DNA of 64,000 bases from Eledone cirrhosa. Lineage: Eukaryota. The notes below the pieces were generated by a model. The model made no database searches and was not told the DNA's origin. It saw nothing but the letters and a program-made list of their open reading frames with translations. Of this stretch, positions 3,358 through 54,545 are shown one piece after another (position 1 is the first letter of the stretch; each line of letters starts with the position of its first letter). The stretch lies in the NCBI GenBank assembly GCA_964016885.1, contig OZ024740.1, positions 63,550,001 through 63,614,000 of the forward strand. The letters run 5' to 3'. Both the position numbers and the translations under genes were made by a program.

Positions 3358-6300
3358 GGGCAGGGGCCCAAGTTATCACAGCCTGGGCCCGCTCGTCATC
3401 GTGCCATTGTAATAGAGCCAAACAAGGCATTTAGTCTTGGCTGCTGGAACGTACGGACGCTGCTTGACAGGGATTCCTTGGAGCGTCCTGAACGAAGGAC
3501 CGCTCTTGTTGCAAAGGAGCTTCGACGTTACGATCTTGACATCGTGGCTTTATCTGAGACGAGGTTAGCTGGGGATGGTCATCTTACGGAATTTTGCGGA
3601 GAATATACATTCTTCTGGAAAGGAAGAGATGAAGGAACCAGAAGAGAGGCTGGGGTAGGATTTGCTGTTAAGACTGTACTTGTGAATAAATTAGAAGAAT
3701 TCCCAGTAGGGATTAGTGAGCGTCTTATGTCCATGAGAGTTCCGCTGGACAAAGGAAGATATGCTACCCTGGTGAGTGTGTATGCTCCAACTATGAATTC
3801 TGTCGATGAAGAAAAACTGTCCTTTTACCATGCCTTGAAAGGTGTTCTAAGAAATATCCCTCAGGCAGACAAAGTCATCGTGCTTGGTGACTTTAATGAT
3901 AGAGTGGGTAGGGATTTTAACACATGGAATGTAATCGGAAGGCATGGGGTGGGAAAGTGTAACAGCAATGGTATGCTCCTGCTGCAGATGTGTGAGGAGC
4001 TGGATCTGTGTGTTACCAACACCATGTTCCAACAAAAGAACAAATTCAAGACCACATGGATGCATCCTGCATCTAAGGAATGGCATCTTTTGGACTACGT
4101 CCTAGTCAGGATGCGTGACAGACAGGATGTGCAGTGTGTTCGTGTTCTTCGTGGAGCTGAGTGCTGGACGGACCACCGCCTGGTACGCGCAAAAGTGAAA
4201 CTAATCACCAAACGTAAAATCCGGGCTCCTGGTGTTACCCTGCCCAAAAGATTGAATGCTGCTCGTTTTAAGGATAAAAATGTGAAGAGGACATTGGAAG
4301 AAGAGATGCAGGCTGCAGATCTTGGTGAGGATTGGCCGACCCTTAAAAAGTCGGTTTATGATGTAGGCAGGCGTGTTCTGGGATTGGTGCAGAGAAAACA
4401 TCAGGACTGGTTTAATGAGAATGATGTACATATAGAAGACTTGTTGGCTGATAAGAGGCGTGCTCTGTCACGCAACTTGACGGCAAAACCACAGGAGAGG
4501 AATACGTTGCATGAGGAGCTCAGGGATGTAAAATCACGTGTTAGGCGGAGTCTTTCTCAGATGAAGGATCAGTGGTGGAGTGAGAAGGCTGGTGAGATAC
4601 AAACTGCGTCTGATTCCAATAACACAAAGCTGTTGTACAGTCTCTTGCGTGAGGTTTATGGAACGTCTTCTTCTCTGGTGACACCGCTTCGCAGCAAGGA
4701 AGGCAAAGAACTTCTTCGTGACTCACAGGGAATTCTACGAAGGTGGCGAGAGCACTTTGATGATCTTTTGAATCAGCCGTCTGTCGTCAGTGAAGATTTC
4801 CTCAATCTCATTCCAGAAAGTCCTGTGAAAGTAGCTCTCGCAGAACCTCCGACACCTGTGGAGGTTGCAGTGGCTATTTCGAAGCTGAACAGTGGAAGAT
4901 CTCCAGGTATGGATGGCATACATGCTGAGCTCCTACAATATGGTGGTGAGAGACTCCTGCAACATCTGCACTCTTTGTTTGGAAGGATATGGGCTAATGA
5001 AACCGTACCTGAGGACTGGAGAGATGCAGTAATGGTGGTCTTGTACAAGGGAAAGGGTAACAGGAATGATTGTGGGAACTACAGAGGTATATCATTGCTT
5101 TCTGTCGTAGGGAAAGTTTTATGTAGGGTGCTTCTGGACCGTCTGCTGACACACATTGCAGATTGTGTTCTTCCTGAAAGTCAATCTGGTTTTCGTGCTG
5201 GACGCGGCACTACTGATATGATCTTCTCAGCTAGACAGCTCCAGGAGAAGTGCATTGAACAAGGCTTGGATCTGTATCAGGTTTTTGTCGATCTGACAAA
5301 GGCTTTCGATACTGTCAACAGAGAGGCATTATGGAAGGTTCTCCAGAAACTTGGTTGCCCTGATAAGTTCCTTGCTTTAGTTAGGTCTTTCCATGACGAC
5401 ATAAAGGCTTGGGTTAATGTCGGAGGTAACATGTCGGAGCCTATCTCAGTAAAAAATGGAGTGAAATAGGGGGATATTCCAGCACCGACCCTGTTTGCCA
5501 TATACTTTGCAATGGTTTTCTGTATTGCATTCAGGAATTGCGAGCTTGGTGTTTACATCCGATATCGAACCTCAGGCAGCATATTTAACATCAGGCGCTT
5601 TGCTGCGAAGACAAAAGTATTTACATCAATCATAAGAGACCTCTTGTATGCAGATGATTGCGATCTTGTAGCGCACACAGAGAGTGAAATGCAGCACATT
5701 TTGAATGCATTTTCTGACGCTTGCACTGCCCTGGGTTTGACTGTCAGTCTCAAGAAAACCGTCGTCATGCACCAACCTGCCCCTAGTAAGCAGTACACTG
5801 AACCAAACATCTATGTGTATGGCAAACGACATGGAGTGGTTGATAAGTTTGTCTACCTGGGAAGCACTGTCAATCGATACGGCAACCTTGACGGTGAAAT
5901 CTCACTTAGGATTAGGAAAGCAAGTGATGCTTTCGGAAAGCTAGAAAGGCGACTCTGGGGTCGGCGAGACATATGCAGGAGGACAAAGGTAAAGGTGTAC
6001 AGGGCATGTGTGCTCTCTTGTCTTCTTTATGCCTGCGAGACCTTGGTCACATATCGACACCACCTTAAGCAATTGGAGCGCTTCCATCAGATGTGTCTCA
6101 GACGGATCCATGGCGTTCACTGGAGGGACCACATCAGTGATGTCGAGATTTTGGAAAGCTCTATGTGTGACAGTATAGAAGCTCTTGTGCTTAAGCAACG
6201 ACTCCGTTGGAGTGGTCACCTTGCCAGGATGAAGGATTCTAGAATACCAAAACAACTCTTTTATGGAGAGTTGGTTAAAGGAAAACGACCGCCACATAAA

Positions 6301-6828
6301 CCAAAAAAGAGGTATAAGGAATCCTTGAAAGCCTCTCTGAAAGACGCTAACATCTCTGCTGATACATGGGAAAATATTGCTGCTGATCGTAATAAATGGA
6401 GAAAGACTGTATATGAGGGAAAAGTTGCCTTTGAGGCATCTCGAATCGCACACGAGAAAGTAAAGCGGGATGTGAGGAAGGGCATTGCTGTTGCACTTCC
6501 AGACGGCGAGGGTCCTCCTATGGTGCTGACATGCAGCGTCTGTGCGAGACTCTGCCTAAGCAAAGCTGGACTCGAAAGTCATCTTCGCAGTCATAAAGTA
6601 AGACCAGTGGTTGACTACCAGGCTGCTGTTGGAGATGCTACTCATCATGCTTGCCAAACATGTGATAGAGAATGTAAATCAGCAGGAGGGCTCAAGCGAC
6701 ATGCAAAAGTACACGAACTCCAACCACAGCCGACTATTCCCAGTGAATGTTTTGGTTGCCGACTCTGTGCAAAACATTTTAGATCATTGGCTGGGCTAAA
6801 AAGCCACATTCGATCGCAGCACTGTTAG
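3358..6828 (+). pseudogene. Near full-length RTE-clade LINE ORF: APE endonuclease, reverse transcriptase and three C-terminal C2H2 zinc fingers; one premature TAG at 5467-5469
   Basis: APE motifs: WNVRTL, ALSETR, YAPT, GDFN, LDYVL, TDH. RT motifs: NYRGISLL, FVDLTKAFD, GVK*GD, LYADD, FVYLGS. ORFs 3478-5469 and 5512-6828 share a frame, which is open from 3358. Confidence 0.95.
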
Positions 6829-10529: not shown

Positions 10530-12005
<1,476 letters not shown>

Positions 12006-12021
12006 TAGACTAGGGGAGGGG

Positions 12022-12471
12022 GTGGTGGGGGTACTAAGGCTAGTGTCGAGGGAGGGCCTCGACATCCATCTGGCCCACTCGGGCCCCTCCCTGCGAAGAT
12101 GCCTCTCCAGGAAACCCGGGAAATCTACTGACACATGCTCCCTCAGAGACTGCCCGATACACCATGCGAACTGTTGCCTACGCACAAACGTCGTGTATAA
12201 GATAGAATGTGACAGGTGCAACCAATACTACATAGGTAGCACAATCCGACCTTTGCACATCCGGATCAAGGAACACACTAAAACCAGGGCCTCGTCTTTC
12301 CGGAAACACATAGACAAATGCGGAAATAAAGACGGAAGGCCCATTGTCACAATTCTAGCGACTGAAAGAAACGTCGGCACGTTACGTATCAAGGAAGCGC
12401 TTTTTATCAAACGCCTGCAACCGCAAATAAACAACCGATCAGAGAGAAGCGAAATGAGATGGCTGGTTTAA
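12022..12471 (+). pseudogene. Penelope-like element C-terminal GIY-YIG endonuclease (5'-truncated)
   Basis: CSLRDCPIH..CC, NVVYKIECDRCNQYYIGSTIRPLHIRIKEH, LRIKEALFIKRLQPQIN. Confidence 0.88.
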
Positions 12472-12866: not shown

Positions 12867-12904
12867 CCCCCAGTTGATGGATGTGAATCCGAAATATATA
12901 GGGA
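12867..12904 (+). ncRNA. Degenerate minimal hammerhead downstream of the GIY-YIG ORF
   Basis: CCC-CAGTTGA-T-GGAT(gtga)ATCC-GAAA-TATA-TA-GGG. The core differs from CTGATGA at two positions. Confidence 0.45.
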
Positions 12905-14325: not shown

Positions 14326-14368
<43 letters not shown>

Positions 14369-14411
14369 CAAGATATTAATAAATGAAGACATTCACATAA
14401 TCAAAATATAT

Positions 14412-14476
14412 TTATTATTATATATATTTCGAAGGTACTGTGTTGTTTTTTCAATACGTCCTCGTCAGATAAAATA
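14412..14476 (-). ncRNA. Type I hammerhead in the PLE pseudo-LTR
   Basis: TTAT-CTGACGA-GGACGTATTG...CAGTACCTTC-GAAA-TATATA-TA-ATAA. Confidence 0.7.
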
Positions 14477-15692
14477 CATGAATTGATGTATGACATACCT
14501 CAACTGTCTTGATGGTTCAATTCCATATTGGCAGTGATTTATTACAAGAAATCTCACCATTTATATACGACAAATAATAACATGATAAACTTAAATATAA
14601 TGAAGAAGAGGATGGGGAGCGAGATATAAATATGAGGGGGTGAGTATGAGAAAATGTAAGAAGAAATAAATAAACACATACGTACATAAATATTTAAATG
14701 CGTAAATATACATATTAGGGAAGAAAAAAAGAGAGAGAGAAAGATAGAAAAAGAAAGAAGAGAGAAGAAAAAAGAGAAGAGAGAAGAAGGAGAGAGAGAG
14801 ATAGAAAAGAGAAGAAAGACGTAACTGCAAAAAGGAAAGAAAGAAATAAGGAAGAAAGAGACATGATGCGTGACCGTTGTTTTCAAATATTAAGTCAAAT
14901 AGAAGCGACCAATTAAATACGATGAAATTTTTTTAATATCTTTTGTATTTGGTTATGTTTAAGCTAATTATACTAATATATTATATCAAAATTAAACAAT
15001 ATAAAAATATTTTCTATAATAATCAGAAGCATAGTTTAATTAATATATTTATTAAATATTTTGTTACAAAATTAAAAAACATTTTTATCTATAAAGCAAG
15101 TTTAAATACATATTAAATATGTATAAGGATATTTACTACAACTTATGCGCATATCACCATCAGTATAGGCATTTTATATAATGTAAAAAATTATTATCTG
15201 AATTATTCTATTTTCATTATAAAAACAGTTCAATTCATTGGTTCTCATTTACTTACAGGATTAATAAGTAGTTATATTTACTCTTAAAAGTATTATTATT
15301 TCGATTTTACTTCTGTAATTACATCTTAATATATTTTAAATCATGTTAAATATACATTATTAATCCATTTCGATAGATCGAAATTATTTACGAAGAATGT
15401 AAACAAAGGAAGATAACTCCTTCAATTTATGTGATCATTTATGTTATCTAAGTTCTTTGAAAGCCAAAAGATATTTCAAACCGCAAATTCAGAAATTTCT
15501 AGTTATACAATGACCATTCTAAATCCGAACTTAGGATACTGAGTCACATCATGAGATTAATTTACTATATAAACAATATACAATTTTTAAGGTAAGGCAA
15601 AACAATATATATACAATAATAATAATAATATTTCAAGAATTATTAATAATAGTCAATATTTTTTTCTTCTTAGTCTTAGTCAGTATTTTTTT

Positions 15693-16133
15693 CTAAATTT
15701 GTATAATGCTTGAAATGTCTTTCCAGGCGTATGTAGTTCCAAATAATTCATTTTTCTTATTAATTAAATTACCATAATTGGTAATTATTAATAGAGTTTC
15801 TAAATTGCAAAGATTGCAGTGTGGTGAAATGGAAGCGTTCCGATAAGAATCAGAATTCTTAAGTTTACTCCAAGAAATTGAGTATTTAATATTTTTCTCT
15901 TTTAAAGACCATATTAATTGTGATAATGAAGTAGAACATTTTTTATCTGGATTTGAGAAAGAATGTTTGTGATTGGAAAACCAAAACTTAAAGTTCGATG
16001 AAGTGGCACCTATGTAGTTATAAGTATTATTATTATTTGTCTTAATGGTACATTTATATACTAAATTCCTATCAAGGCAATTATTTTGTAAAGGGCATTC
16101 AGATTTCCTTCTACAGTTACAGTTCAATTCCAT
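15693..16133 (-). pseudogene. PLE GIY-YIG endonuclease domain
   Basis: CNCRRKSECPLQNNCL, LVYKCTI..YNYIGAT..FK.WFSNHKHSF, CNLCNLE..LI..LINKKNE. Confidence 0.88.
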
Positions 16134-16528
16134 GTTATTTCTATAACCTAAACTATTCGTATTATCATTATTATTTTTCGGTGTTCCTCTCTTCTATCTC
16201 TCTCTCCTTCTCGCTTCCCTTTTTTCTTCTCTCTTCTTTCTTCTCTTCTATCTTTTTCTCTCTTTCTCTCTCTTTTTCTTCCCTAACATGTATATTTATG
16301 CATTTAAATATTTATGTATGTATGTGTTTATTTATTTCTGCTTGCATTTTCTCATACTCACCCCCTCCTTATACTTATATCTCGCTCCACATCCTCTTCT
16401 TCATTATATTTAAGTTTATCATGTTATTATTTATGGTATATAAATGTTGAGATTTACTGTAATAAATCACTGCCAATACTGGAATTGAACCATCAAGACA
16501 GTTGAGGTATGTCATACATCAATTAATG

Positions 16529-16593
16529 TATTTTATCTGACTAGGACGTACTGAAAAAACAGCACAGTACCTTCGAAATATATATAATAATAA
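16529..16593 (+). ncRNA. Hammerhead copy in the inverted arm (core mutated to CTGACTA)
   Basis: Inverted copy of 14412-14476; stem II GTACTG/CAGTAC. Confidence 0.6.
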
Positions 16594-16758
16594 ATATATT
16601 TTGATTATGTGAATATCTTCATTTATTAATATTTTGAATAATATTAATAACTCCAAAAAAACTTCCTTGCAGAGTGCTTTTAATCTATTGTAAAACTATA
16701 TTCATTGAGTAATCAATGAACCATATTAATCTTTGGTTATACCGAATTCACAGACTAT

Positions 16759-19266: not shown

Positions 19267-19403
19267 TATATACATACATATATATATACATATATATAAA
19301 TACATACATATATATATACATATATATAAATACATACATATATATATACACATATATAAACATATATATATATATTTATACATATATACATACATATATA
19401 TAT
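18904..19403. repeat. Compound (TA/TACA)n microsatellite; similar arrays at 18400-18580 and 20270-21253
   Basis: Read directly from the sequence. Confidence 0.95.
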
Positions 19404-20268
19404 AAACTGTAAAACTAGAAACGTAGTCTATAGCATAAGATGTACAGAGGGTACCTGCAGAAACATGACAACAACATACATAGGTGAGACAGCTCGTAGC
19501 ATAGGTGAAAGGATAGACCAACACTGGGGGAACTAAAAGAACGAAAAAACGGGTCAGTACTATACGAACATGCCAGACAACAACATGACGGTAACATAGA
19601 CAACATAGAAATTAGAATAATATCTAAACCTAGAAATGACCCAGCAGATAGGCAAATCAGAGAGGCCAGTGAAATAGAAATTAGAAGACCAAGACTAAAC
19701 AGAAAGAATGAATGGAATAACGACAACACCCAAACAAACAACACTGACCTAAGAGAAGTATAAATAAGTAAATAAAATAAAATAAAATAAATAAATAAAT
19801 AAATAAATACATACACAAGCACAATAACAACAAACACATAAACACACATTAGTCACCCAATCACGAACACACATCACACATCAAACAAAACACTATACAC
19901 ACACGCAAACGCATGCGCAAAGAAGACAAAATAAAATAAACAAACAAGCAAATAAATAAATAAATATATAGACAGACTGAATAAAAATGGCGTAGCCATA
20001 CAATCCAACAGGAGGAAACAATAGAAACACTGACGATGTTGCAGATGTGCAACGAAAGATTTATGATAAACTATATATATATGTTTGTGTCTATATTGTA
20101 TCTGTATTATTTTTGACCGTCGGTTAGTCAATGGCAACATTGAGGACCGAGTATATTATATTATATTAGATTACCGATATAAAAGACACAGAAGCGAAAA
20201 GCGAAAACCAGTTCTGTTATTAATTCTGAAAATATTACACAAATATGACCCTCCCCAAGTATAACAAC
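19402..20268 (+). mobile_element. 5'-truncated PLE: GIY-YIG remnant plus hammerhead tail, in (TA)n
   Basis: [52 protein letters not shown]. Hammerhead at 20022-20073: CTGACGA-T-GTTGCA(gatg)TGCAAC-GAAA. Confidence 0.85.
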
Positions 20269-20660
20269 ATATATATATATACATATATATAAATACATAT
20301 ATATAAATACATATATATATATATACATATATATAAATACATATATATATATACATATATATAAATACATATATATATACATATATATAAATACATATAT
20401 ATATATACATATATATAAATACATATATATACACACATATATATATACATATATATTTACATATATATAAATACATATATATACATATATATAAATACAT
20501 ATATATATATACATATATATAAATACATATATATACACACATATATATATACATATATATTTACATATATATAAATACATATATATACATATATATAAAT
20601 ACATATATATATACATATATATATATACACACATATATATATATATACATATATATATAT

Positions 20661-21358: not shown

Positions 21359-21970
21359 CTAGCAGATTTACCCGGCGTTGCTCGGGGTTTGAAATTATGC
21401 TAAGAATATACAGCTAGGAAGTAAAAGAAGAACATTATTTGTCCCCAACCTGTCAAAATAAGCAGAAGTCTTCAATAAATAATTGTTTCTACTTTTGGCA
21501 CAAGGCCAGCAATTACCCAGTGTATTACTGGTACTTTATTTTATCGACCCCGTAAGGATGAAAGGCAAAGTTAACCTCGGCGGGATTTGAACTCAGAATG
21601 GCAAGGGCCGTAACTCTATGCGTCAAAGCATGGCGTCCGACCCTCTACCGATACTGCCAATCCACCGCCAAGTCTTCAATAAATAATGCAAACAAATATA
21701 TTTGGTGAAAAGGTTATCTCCCTTTTTTATAAGGATTGTCAATAAATTTTGTTATCTCCCTTACATCAATTTTTCTACCGATAATTTTGATATCGATTTT
21801 TTATTGCTCAACGTGGGTCGATTTGAAAAATGTTTGTGATGTGACAATCTTAGCGACCTGTGCAACGTGCACAGAAAGTTTGGTCAAATTAAGTTGGTAA
21901 TTGTCAAAGCCTTATGCATGCCAAGTTGTACACAGACACACACACATCCTCGCTTTTATATATATAAAGA
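21359..21970 (-). mobile_element. Non-autonomous Helitron with a nested SINE
   Basis: Minus strand 5' A|TC..TATATATAAAAG; 3' hairpin CCCGAGCAACGCCGGG then CTAG|T. An empty paralogous site lies at 17150-17290. A related fragment lies at 22481-22603. Confidence 0.88.
21481..21669 (-). mobile_element. Nin/Deu-domain SINE with ~18 bp TSD
   Basis: TTTGCCTTTCATCCTTACGGGGTCGATAAAATAAAGTACCAG core. AAGTCTTCAATAAATAAT at 21466 and 21670. Confidence 0.9.
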
Positions 21971-22972
21971 TATTGTTATATAAAGTAGCACACCAGAAAA
22001 ATAAATTGTTATAATTGAACTGTTTGTTATAATTACGTTTCGTTTGACTGAAACTAATATTCGCACATACGTATGTATGTATGAACCCATAACTTCTGAC
22101 GAGTCTTAGGGGTGCTGTAGTGTCATGCAGCGTTTCTTGGGCACGTGTTTTCTTAAACATGGCGGAATCCATGTTTGAACAGAGCTTATTTCTCCCAACG
22201 AGAGAGAAAGAAGTGGAGGAAGACATAACCCTAGTTCTGGAGTGATATTTTTTATCGATCTCAAAAGAATGAAAGGCAAAGTTCATCTCGGCGGGATTTG
22301 AACTGAGGCCGTAGAGAGCGGGAACGGATCCTGCAAAGCATTCTATCCAGCGTTCTAGCGATACTACCAATTCGCCGCCGCCATTCACTCATATACAAGT
22401 ATGTTAATATCCTGGCAGTTTAAATTCGATTATAGTTAAAAGAATAACGTTTTTATGCACAAATTATTGAAAAACACAGCATTTTGATATCGATTTTTTA
22501 TTGCTCAACGTGGGTCGATTTGAAAAATGTTTATGATGATACATTCTTAGCGACCTGTGGAAATGCACAGAAAATTTGGTCAAATTCAGTTGGTAATTCT
22601 GTCAGGTTCAAATTACATCGTGTTTACAAATTATTGTTTATGTACATTCACTTTTTCTCAGATGGCTTGTATTTTTCTGTATAATCTTTCAATTGCTGAT
22701 TTAAGGTGAATACAGTCTCGGTGTATGATATTGACAGAAAACCAATACTCTTTGAAATGAAAAAAAAAAAAAAAGAAACTATAAACTATAAATGTTAAAG
22801 GGATAAATATTAGTATACCTGTGATGTTGAAATTTATCTTGAAATTGTGACGATTGTCTCAGTTGATTGATGTTTTTGAACCTGCGAGATTCTTCGCGCA
22901 TTGGCGTTACCTTTTGTCCACTTCGTTTGTCTACCAGCATATCAGGAAAAAATTATACATTTTCTATATATT

Positions 22973-23039
22973 TTGTCTGAGGAGAACATGTTCTACTTTA
23001 TGTTATACATAAAACTTTGCATCTTCGAAATATATACAA
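22973..23039 (+). ncRNA. Type I hammerhead (slightly degenerate)
   Basis: TTGT-CTGAGGA-GAACATG...CATCTTC-GAAA-TATAT-ACAA. Confidence 0.6.
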
Positions 23040-23057
23040 TGAAATAAAACATTTTAT

Positions 23058-23104
23058 TGCTGACAATCGTTTCTTCCAAACTTTCGTTTGGAATCATCGG
23101 AGCA
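23058..23104 (-). ncRNA. Type I hammerhead, CCGAUGA core variant
   Basis: TGCT-CCGATGA-TTCCAAAC(gaaa)GTTTGGAA-GAAA-CGATTG-TC-AGCA. Perfect 8 bp stem II with a GNRA loop; GUC site. Confidence 0.75.
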
Positions 23105-23994
23105 CTAGCAAAGTTCAGACATATAATTAACCTCCTATTCCACAGAACAATCGTAAAGATACATAGATGTTAGTGTTGTCATTAACAGTGTCATATTTAA
23201 AGAGGGAAGATGATGTGGTCAGTATCAGTGGATGCGACAAAGATTATAAAAGAATAATACAACAATTATAGAGGAATTAAAGAAGAAAGTTACTCGCAAA
23301 ACGAGGACATTAGCAGTACATATGCAAGCGTATAGAAAGAGTGCAGATGTGTTAGGCATGTACAGAATAACCAGGTAAGAAACAGGCAATGGTACTAAGC
23401 ATATATATCACAGTATGGCAAAGGTATCACATAATACAATACAGGTATAAAAGCATATTAAGCAGACAGAGATGCTTGTGTATGAAAAGCAGTTTCTATG
23501 AAGTTTATGGTGGATGTAGTGTGATAATTGTTCCGGTAATGTTCAGATGTGCATGTGTTGTGAGTATTAATATTAAGGTCTTCCTTTCCATTACATTGGT
23601 TAAATTTTAGTAAATGTTTATCAGTAGTTACAACTATGGATTGTATATTGGTCCTATTACAATCTTATCAAGGGTTCGAGTTGTTCTAGAATGATCTGTC
23701 TAACGGTTTGATTTCAGGAAGTGAATTAGAGATCTATTATTAAGGGGAGCTAATGTGAAAGGAGAGGTAATTGGCGATTAATTTGTATATAAGAGAAAAA
23801 AATGTATAGTTGTTTACAGCTCCAATTAGTTAAATGTGTTAATATATAATATATTATGTTATAGATGAATCCTTTTATATAATGCTATTTATTTTTAAAT
23901 TTATATATTTAATTTTAAATACAATCTTTTTTCTTATAATACATTAAAGGTTTCATTTTATTAAATGAATAAAATATTAGTAAGCTATTACAAA

Positions 23995-24900
23995 TAAGAA
24001 ATGTGTTATATGTAAAATGAACCCCCCATATAAATTGTAAAACTAGAAATGCAGTCTATAGCTTAAGATGTACAGAGGGTACTTTCAGAAACATGTCAAC
24101 GGCATACATAGGCGAGACAGCTCGAAGCATAGGAGAAAGAATAGACCAACCCCGGATGGAACTAAAGGGAACAAAAAACGGTTCAGTACTATATGAACAC
24201 ACCAGACAAAGACATGACGGTAATATAGACAATATAGAAATTAAAATAATATCTAAGCATAGAAATGATTCTACAGGTAGGAAAATCAGAGAAGCAACTG
24301 AGATAGAACTAAGATGAGCGAAGTTGAACAGAAAGAACGAGTAGAATAACAACAACAACCATACCCAAACAAACAATACTGACTTAAGGGAAATATAAAT
24401 AAATAAATAAATATATATATATACACAAGTACAACAACAACAAACATATAAACACACACTAGTGAACAAAGATAGAATACAAAAACAAAATCACATACAC
24501 TCAAACGCGAACACACACACCAAACATTATACACACACGCAAACGCATGCGCAGAGACAGAGACAGAGACAAGAAGAAATAAATAAATTAATAAAAGTAA
24601 AAATTGCGTAGACATTACAATACAATACAATGGGAGAAAACATAATAGTACCACTGATGATGTTGCAGATGTGCGACGAAATAACTTTGATAGACTATAT
24701 ATATATTTATACCTGTATTTTTAACCGCTGGTCAATCAATAATAAACATTGACAGCCAAATAAATTAACTATGGAGATATAAAGGATACAGAAGTGAAAA
24801 CCAATCAAACAGTGTGTTCTGTTATTATTTCTGGCAATATTATAACAATATGACTCTCCCCAAGTATAACAATATTTGTTTCGACACACGATTTCATATC
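23995..24900 (+). mobile_element. 5'-truncated PLE: GIY-YIG remnant plus hammerhead tail
   Basis: [37 protein letters not shown]. Hammerhead at 24646-24697: CTGATGA-T-GTTGCA(gatg)TGCGAC-GAAA. Paralogue of 19402-20268. Confidence 0.85.
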
Positions 24901-25094
24901 AAAAATAATTTGAAGATAATTATAAAGAATTAATATCTAGTAACATATATATACATACAGATGCATATCAATGCTAGCAAATATATAGGTTTTGTCTTAG
25001 TAACTTTGTGGTTCAATGCATGGGGTTGCAGAACAATAATATGAGAGACGTAAAATAAGAAAATTATAAAATTAACTTACTTACTAAAATATCA

Positions 25095-25174
25095 CTTCCA
25101 ACTAATTAATTTCTGAAATGGAATAAATATATTTTCCGAAGAAAACATAGAGAATCATTTCGTCGTCAGGGAAG
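25095..25174 (-). ncRNA. Type I hammerhead (array copy 1)
   Basis: Reverse complement of 25716-25795 with one change in stem III. Confidence 0.8.
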
Positions 25175-25715
25175 ACTATTCTCATCTAAGTATCCAGGCA
25201 AAGCGTGGACTCTGGAAACTTATTCAAAAATAATTCAGTGGATAGAAAATAGCAAAGCGTGGACTGAATTCCTAGCCATTGAGAAAATCACTGCCTCTGC
25301 GTCGGTGGCAAATTCAAAAAGAATCAATCACGTGACATCGAGGTCAATCAGTGGAAAGTGGTTTGCTAATAAGACAGCGGCCTGCTTGCTACCATAGCAG
25401 CAGTCTTGGCCAATATTGCTCGACAAATAATTTGGAGATAATTATAAAGAATTAATATCTAGTAACATATATATACATACAGATGCATATCAATGCTAGC
25501 AAATATATAGGTTTTGTCTTAGTAACTTTGTGGTTCAATGCATGGGGTTGCAGAACAATAATATGAGAGACGTAAAATTTGCCACTGACGCAGAGGCAGT
25601 GATTTTCTCAATGGCTAGGAATTCAGTCCACGCTTTGCTATTTTCTATCCACTGAATTATTTTTGAATAAGTTTCCAGAGTCCACGCTTTGCCTGGATAC
25701 TTAGATGAGAATAGT

Positions 25716-25795
25716 CTTCCCTGACGACGAAATGATTCTCTATGTTTTCTTCGGAAAATATATTTATTCCATTTCAGAAACTAATTAGTTGGAAG
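25716..25795 (+). ncRNA. Type I hammerhead (array copy 2)
   Basis: CTTCC-CTGACGA-CGAAATG..TATGTTTTC(TTCG)GAAAATATA..CATTTCA-GAAA-CTAATTAG-TT-GGAAG. Confidence 0.82.
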
Positions 25796-26238
25796 TGATA
25801 TTTTAGTAAGTAAGTTAATTTTATAATTTTCTTATTTTACGTCTCTCATATTATTTTTCTGCAACCCCATTCATTGAACCACAAAGTTACTAAGACAAAA
25901 CCTATATATTTGCTAGCATTGATATGCATCTGTATGTATATATATGTTACTAGATATTAATTCTTTATAATTATCTCCAAATTATTTGTCGAGCAATATT
26001 GGCCAAGACTGCTGCTATGGTAGCAGGCAGGCCGCTGTCTTATTAGCAAACCACTTTCCACTGATTGACCTCGATGTCACGTGATTGATTCTTTTTGAAT
26101 TTGCCACCGACGCAGAGGCAGTGATTTTTCTCAATGGCTAGGAATTCAGTCCACGCTTTGCTATTTTCTATCCACTGAATTATTTTTGAATAAGTTTCCA
26201 GAGTCCACGCTTTGCCTGGATACTTAGATGAGAATAGT

Positions 26239-26318
26239 CTTCCCTGACGACGAAATGATTCTCTATGTTTTCTTCGGAAAATATATTTATTCCATTTCAG
26301 AAATTAATTAGTTGGAAG
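26239..26318 (+). ncRNA. Type I hammerhead (array copy 3)
   Basis: Tandem copy 523 bp downstream of copy 2. Confidence 0.8.
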
Positions 26319-26364
26319 TGATATTTTAGTAAGTAAGTTAATTTTATAATTTTCTTATTTTACG

Positions 26365-26501
<137 letters not shown>

Positions 26502-42950: not shown

Positions 42951-43849
<899 letters not shown>

Positions 43850-54195: not shown

Positions 54196-54242
<47 letters not shown>

Positions 54243-54250
<8 letters not shown>

Positions 54251-54545
54251 AGATCAAAAGATGGTTAAAGGAGTTCCATATATTTTATTATGCGCATTTC
54301 AAAAACAAACATCATCAAGCAATAATATTTGTGTTTTCATCAGATAAAACAGGAGAACATGATATGAAGGCTAAAAAACACTTGTTGATAGTGCAGTTTT
54401 GAAATGCGCATAATAAAATATATGGAACTCCTTTAACCATCTTTTGATCTTATATTATGCATACTCCAGTCCCACAAACTGTAGAGTGCTTCTTATCCGA
54501 TATCTGCATTGCTTTATTGTACTACAATAAAACTCACCTCCTACA
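54243..54545. mobile_element. Small PLE-type fold-back insertion in (TA)n
   Basis: 54243-54304 is the reverse complement of 54397-54458. Confidence 0.75.
54283..54349 (-). ncRNA. Type I hammerhead ribozyme
   Basis: TTTTAT-CTGATGA-AAACACAAATATTATT(gctt)GATGATGTTTGTTTTT-GAAA-TGCGCA-TA-ATAAAA. Confidence 0.82.

Follow-up and report, generated by a model that had tools for sequence, protein, structure and literature searches.

A probable junction of the 3' ends of two unrelated repeat families, each carrying a hammerhead-shaped motif, in Eledone cirrhosa

We analyzed a stretch of 64,000 nucleotides from Eledone cirrhosa (contig OZ024740.1, positions 63,550,001 to 63,614,000 of the forward strand), referred to here as the window; all coordinates count from its first base. 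This eukaryote DNA is rich in AT and in repeats; it contains long (TA)n runs, several retroelement fragments, and a short repeat present in about 20 copies, which we take to be a cephalopod SINE from its appearance. Within it, two hammerhead-shaped motifs on opposite strands face each other across a few bases, and the following features surround them.

22802-23048, plus strand: left repeat, the 5'-truncated 3' end of a multicopy family, likely a Penelope-like pLTR; the usual tail is absent
22969-23046, plus strand: hammerhead-shaped motif, type I, with stem I, core, stem II, GAAA, and palindromic loop
23043-23048, plus strand: left-family AATAAA, which shares bases with the 3' strand of the plus-motif stem I
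23046-23048, no strand: junction of the two families, a 3-base AAA microhomology, placed from aligned reads and contigs
23053-23058, minus strand: AATAAA of the right family, beginning on the final base of the minus-motif stem I
23058-23104, minus strand: hammerhead-shaped motif, type I, with a 4-bp stem I, a CCGATGA core, and an 8-bp stem II
23046-23840, minus strand: right repeat, about 800 bases of a second multicopy family, with its 3' end at the junction; the usual tail is absent
24027-24875, plus strand: neighboring third repeat, with a GIY-YIG-like frame at 24027-24341 and its own hammerhead-like motif at 24654

The outer limits of both repeats are approximate: many relatives of the left repeat diverge left of 22915, and the stretches 22720-22785 and 23838-23920 are masked as repeats. 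The initial annotation had described two unrelated hammerheads converging 18 bp apart, each followed by AATAAA on its own strand, with no (TA)n between them. Most of this description held. The two AATAAA motifs were seen at 23043-23048 on the plus strand and at 23058-23053 on the minus strand, so that both strands carry the signal within 16 bases, and the sequence between the motifs contains no (TA)n. A local alignment of the two motifs scored 16, a value equalled by 228 of 300 shuffles, and the motifs are thus unrelated. The spacing needs qualification: positions 23040-23057 do make 18 nt, but with its best stem I the plus motif spans 22969-23046, and the folded motifs lie only 11 nt apart. 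Their predicted cut sites are separated by 23 nt.

The hammerhead consensus reads C3 U4 G5 A6 N7 G8 A9, G12 A13 A14 A15, and U16 H17 (PMC3088659). The core of the plus motif, CTGAGGA, starts at 22977 (22977-22983). In the best register, an 8-bp stem I pairs 22969-22976 with 23039-23046; stem II has three pairs, of which G10.1-C11.1 is the first, then a C-C mismatch, three more pairs, and an inner hairpin; and GAAA at 23027-23030 is followed by a palindromic TATATA loop. The same register places a C at U16.1 (position 23037), and the core therefore departs from consensus. In public runs X1 and X7 (see below), the left family has T at this position (5,727 of 5,744 depth in X1 and 293 of 301 reads in X7). 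Because the family reads T there, the C is a private change in this copy at a base that the consensus requires, and this copy of the hammerhead is likely dead; effects of changes at 15.1 and 16.1 are covered in PMC3088659. A 9-bp hairpin could also form over 23037-23059 in a plus-strand transcript, where it would compete with stem I. Within the window, the plus motif resembles the hammerheads at 14468 and 16537 (score of 36, reached by none of 300 shuffles), with which it shares an identical stem II plan in which the pairs themselves have changed.

The core of the minus motif, CCGATGA at 23100-23094, also deviates from consensus, carrying U4C at 23099. Its stem II is a perfect 8-bp hairpin with a GAAA loop, closed by a U-A pair and without the G10.1-C11.1 pair. 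The loop after the GAAA of the core, CGATTG, is nearly palindromic (one wobble). There are 4 pairs in stem I and the triplet has UC at its end, with the predicted cut between 23062 and 23061. The region 23050-23115 gave a z of -2.95. Among the 40 of 204 variant rows listed, each of which reaches about 70 in 100 in some run, none lies between 23038 and 23104 in the right family, and rows appear at 23105, 23112, and 23116. From this stretch free of listed variants, U4C together with U10.1-A11.1 may be a common trait of the right family. Viroids provide a natural example of U4C, which has low in vitro activity (PMC3088659), and a U4C core shared across the family, if real, would be a natural variant worth assaying. 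In run X5, from a second organism, one contig related to the right repeat parted from it within stem II, with a loose end before 23093. A pattern scan for the minus motif gave no match in viral contigs, none in prokaryote genomes, and two in metagenome contigs; both of the latter were outside any hammerhead context and were discarded as chance.

Whether the two motifs deserve the name of hammerhead has a mixed answer. Each has three stems around the core in type I order, and each has a small palindromic helix III near the 3' end (TATATA and CGATTG), as in Penelope-like elements. A relaxed descriptor found 5 matches in the window, both motifs included, compared with an average of 0.175 per shuffle (40 block-wise dinucleotide shuffles); it had been relaxed after the motifs were seen, to permit one core defect. 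A stricter descriptor recovered the minus motif and missed the plus motif. Searches with Rfam gave no match at gathering score over the whole window, all hammerhead-like motifs in it included, and the four matches obtained over 22600-23400 at E values up to 10 came from other families than the hammerhead. The claim of two hammerheads thus stands as far as the type I shape and an excess over shuffled sequence go, but both cores are off consensus and Rfam matches neither. An alignment of six other motifs from the window, made for an RNA model, was of no help, as the cores fell out of register. In five of the eight repeat-linked hammerhead-like ends of the window, AATAAA lies 7 to 12 nt after GAAA; these eight are nine listed ends minus that at 43181, which has G at position 3 and no stem I.

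Further evidence on what the locus is comes from public reads and contigs. Four of nine public runs were aligned to 22720-23920 at 80% likeness, X5 yielding only 2 records; organism A, a source of these reads and contigs, may differ from the species of the window. X7 is a RAD-seq run, so its read counts are not copy counts, and depth in general is not copy number. Among the 19 of 351 loose ends listed, right-family records running leftward past 23046 continued into one shared tail: 30 contigs in X1 (agreement of 0.82), 3 contigs in X4 (0.96), and 368 reads in X7 (0.84), the last compared with an average depth of about 528 over 23048-23088. In that same list, left-family records running rightward past 23048 entered a different shared tail, seen in 1 contig of X4 and in 256 reads of X7 (agreement of 0.82), against 301 reads covering 23037. 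Relatives of the left repeat had loose ends before 22915 in X1 and X4 and behind 23048 in X4 and X7. Elsewhere, then, each family has its hammerhead, AATAAA, and a distinct tail of 30 or more bases, whereas at this locus both tails are absent and the families overlap by AAA (23046-23048). Since the aligned records mostly keep their tails, ends with a tail predominate in both families, and stopping at the junction is not usual for either. No record bridging the junction was present among the 18 of 1,684 pieces listed; bridging or tail-less copies may exist as a minority beyond these 18 pieces and the 19 of 351 loose ends.

Depth in X1 rose toward the junction from both sides, from 29 (22802-22842) to 12,143 (23007-23047) across the left repeat and, unevenly, from 220 (23827-23867) to 70,660 (23048-23088) across the right repeat. 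Such a rise from both sides is expected of 5'-truncated copies on opposite strands. The initial annotation had proposed, as one of two readings, a single element with ribozymes in both polarities, and had named beforehand the separate occurrence of the halves as the result that would speak against it. The halves do occur apart in the public runs, each with its own continuation, and the single-element reading fails. We conclude with high confidence that two unrelated repeat families, each with many copies, meet here by their 3' ends, and that the site is not one element.

Both families are likely Penelope-like retroelements. The type of hammerhead and the neighboring elements point to this membership, less strongly for the right family, which would be of Penelope type by its hammerhead form, tail, and truncation pattern alone. 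The depth gradients and shared tails show copies that are numerous, dispersed, and 5'-truncated and that end in a short 3' tail, and Penelope-like elements have been described with a tail of 30-40 bp and inverted ends (Craig et al. 2021, bioRxiv 2021.04.23.441226). We found no pLTR repeats, direct or inverted, around either half in 21400-26500 or in 22700-24050, both halves being solo fragments, and protein searches gave no homology to reverse transcriptase (RT) or endonuclease in either half, the left piece being only about 250 bases long. A minus-strand stretch, 23540-23800, had looked by eye like a decayed endonuclease end and was rejected: it had no Pfam match and no match among 1.84 billion representatives, and against a profile of six fragments from the window it scored about 0 bits, a value equalled by 2 of 50 shuffles with 12 frames tried. 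The plus-strand frame at 23250-23570 gave nothing in Pfam or in a protein search. A 34-nt direct repeat (22985/23841; 71%) and a 17-nt inverted repeat (22947/23799) are likely chance in AT-rich DNA.

For the left family, the in-window relative is informative. The hammerheads at 14468 (minus strand) and 16537 (plus strand) are the outward-pointing ends of an inverted-repeat element at 14363-16640; they are nearly identical, with a score of 275 between them, and belong to one family. The ORF of this element has Atlas look-alikes at 0.95-0.96, and in one cluster of these 11 in 100 members carry GIY-YIG; the ORF at 15720-16160 had no relatives by word search and no Pfam match. A CxCX5C linker is present at 15693-16193 in this relative of the plus motif and in neither of the two pieces at the junction. 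The Hydra clade of endonuclease-bearing Penelope-like elements bears hammerheads, targets (TA)n, and occurs in molluscs and cnidarians (Craig et al. 2021, bioRxiv 2021.04.23.441226); its marks include a CxCX5C linker and a DKT motif, and the linker was seen in the 15693-16193 relative alone. The element at 14363-16640 thus appears Hydra-clade-like, and through it, membership in that clade is a lead for the left family only.

The window holds further elements. The third repeat, at 24027-24875, is 74% identical to 19400-20270 and unrelated to either motif of the junction, and the minus motif showed no similarity to it when considered as an inverted pLTR of the 24027 element. The GIY-YIG label of its frame (24027-24341) comes from a YIG motif and weak tblastn matches within the window, with no Pfam match. 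Its hammerhead-like motif at 24654 forms, with those at 20030 and 18154 (all on the plus strand), a third group marked by an extra base before stem II; 24654 and 20030 are related and lie downstream of GIY-YIG-like frames, and 18154 is more distant. The best-preserved hammerhead of the window (core at 54343, minus strand) has a consensus core, an 8-bp stem I, and a TGCGCA loop. It sits at 54238-54463, next to (TA)n, in a unit of 226 bases whose inverted arms are 67 nt long, and this unit looks like a minimal noncoding derivative. A GIY-YIG ORF at 11926-12471 (plus strand) matches Pfam PF01541 with an E value of 0.0001; a GAAA-palindrome stretch lies near 12890 in its 3' region, where scans found no hammerhead core. 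At 3358-6828 (plus strand) is a nearly intact LINE-type ORF with endonuclease and RT domains and C-terminal C2H2 zinc fingers, interrupted by a single in-frame stop (5467-5469). The region 24903-26374 is occupied by nested duplications, direct and inverted, of 150 to 540 bases at 99% identity that end in (TA)n; they are either a recent complex insertion or an assembly feature. A 119-base direct repeat (21784-21902 and 22481-22598; 92% identity) follows a SINE-like repeat in both of its copies. A non-LTR retrozyme, which has tandem units with complete type I hammerheads (bioRxiv 10.64898/2026.07.22.740005), was also considered for the locus and rejected, with no tandem copy nearby.

Two opposite-strand hammerhead shapes this close together do recall viroid-like RNAs, in which paired ribozymes, one per strand, are a hallmark (PMC10162972), and the locus could in principle be a circular RNA of this kind, self-cleaving in both polarities and copied into the genome. 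We consider this very improbable. Besides the distinct tail that each half carries elsewhere, the locus has no terminal direct repeat and no tandem unit; all four circular folds fell inside the shuffle range (z of -1.34 to +1.25), with no rod-like fold; the cores are both defective, with stem III of the weak type; and viral contigs gave no match to the minus-strand pattern. It is also scarcely credible that the host keeps the junction for cleavage and polyadenylation of convergent transcripts, as a signal read in both directions. The paired AATAAA motifs and the hairpin possible at 23037-23059 would suit such a role, but AATAAA comes with the repeats, as the five of eight repeat-linked ends indicate, and is partly stem I, and the plus core is decayed. 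Nor is there much reason to suspect an assembly error uniting two repeat families, an explanation to which we assign a very small probability. No read or contig bridges the junction among the 18 of 1,684 pieces listed, as such an error would have it, but both halves carry private substitutions, as in an old single locus, and 3 bases of overlap would not suffice for an assembler to join them.

How the junction arose is a closer question. The initial annotation had offered, as its other reading, a tail-to-tail insertion of two Penelope ends; the meeting of two families is supported, but for the step that joined them we lean toward a deletion rather than an insertion. In the model that we narrowly favor, two Penelope-like families would have inserted facing each other in one AT-rich spot, and a later microhomology-mediated deletion, guided by AAA, would have removed both tails, together with any (TA)n target that lay between the families. 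A single deletion would explain the loss of both tails, the absence of (TA)n, and the failure to find a displaced tail: the missing tails were found neither at the far ends nor elsewhere in the window. For comparison, AATAAA is separated from (TA)n by 52 and 44 nt at two other ends in the window (14468 and 54343). Published Penelope copies include some with microhomology deletions, and a case of one family lying inside another in opposite orientation is also on record (PMC3846280). A 3-base overlap in AT-rich DNA is nevertheless weak evidence, and it fits microhomology-primed insertion equally well; tail-less ends arise naturally in Penelope elements (Craig et al. 2021, bioRxiv 2021.04.23.441226; PMC11167929).

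The close rival, somewhat less probable in our judgment, is that one element inserted directly, in opposite orientation, at the AT-rich 3' end of its partner. Here a nick by the endonuclease immediately downstream of AATAAA would supply a free end that, through the 3-base overlap, primes reverse transcription inside the incoming RNA, yielding a tail-less end. In purified form, a Penelope-like protein was shown to nick AT-rich DNA, including its own pLTR, and to begin reverse transcription at internal sites bounding the tail (PMC11167929), and Penelope-like elements show a tendency to land within or beside existing copies (PMC6765202). At the locus, each end lies no more than 7 nt from AATAAA, and the AAA overlap would suit priming. 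Such an insertion should, however, leave the tail of the target at the far end of the incoming copy, where we found no match at up to 3 mismatches; the best local scores for the tail at the far ends were equalled by 5 to 31 in 100 of all 6,396 tiles. Moreover, most aligned records keep the tail at the junction positions (among the 19 of 351 loose ends listed), and no target-site duplication was seen at 22700-24050. We regard as improbable, although worth stating, a bolder form in which the endonuclease of one family homes to the boundary between hammerhead and tail in an unrelated pLTR and primes through the 3-base overlap, so that junctions of this kind recur genome-wide, with the U4C and U10.1-A11.1 core conserved and working in the right family. 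Recurring boundary junctions, if real, would show in genomes the cutting at pLTR tails so far seen only in vitro, and would extend it across families.

The favored reading, two converging ends joined by a deletion, places the locus among known arrangements with some differences. pLTR hammerheads are abundant in animal genomes, and published cases include dual hammerheads on opposite strands, separated by about 100-700 bp (Cervera and De la Pena 2014, PMC4209133). Like the hammerheads of that report, both motifs here are type I, with a long helix II, a short helix I, a small palindromic helix III, and many diverged copies. Unlike them, neither motif has the extra base between positions 9 and 10.1, and the minus motif has U4C and lacks G10.1-C11.1; the two motifs at the junction come from unrelated families, converge, and lie only 11 nt apart. 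Inverted-pLTR Penelope insertions (PMC3846280), of which 14363-16640 is an example in the window, likewise present two opposite-strand hammerheads; there the ends are nearly identical, of one family, and point outwards, whereas at the junction they are unrelated and face inwards. Like viroid-like circular RNAs (PMC10162972), the locus has one ribozyme shape per strand, but it has no circular unit or rod fold, its halves occur apart as genomic DNA repeats, and its cores are defective. In the literature covered, mostly open-access articles without their supplements, we found no account of ends from two families converging at so short a distance.

On this evidence the junction is everyday transposon debris, two families' ends converging with no viroid-like element, and no joint function is predicted for the two motifs together. 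In its likeliest reading it is of little consequence, one among many piles of retroelement ends. It does carry a caution, in that screens for opposite-strand ribozyme pairs will catch such junctions in animal genomes.
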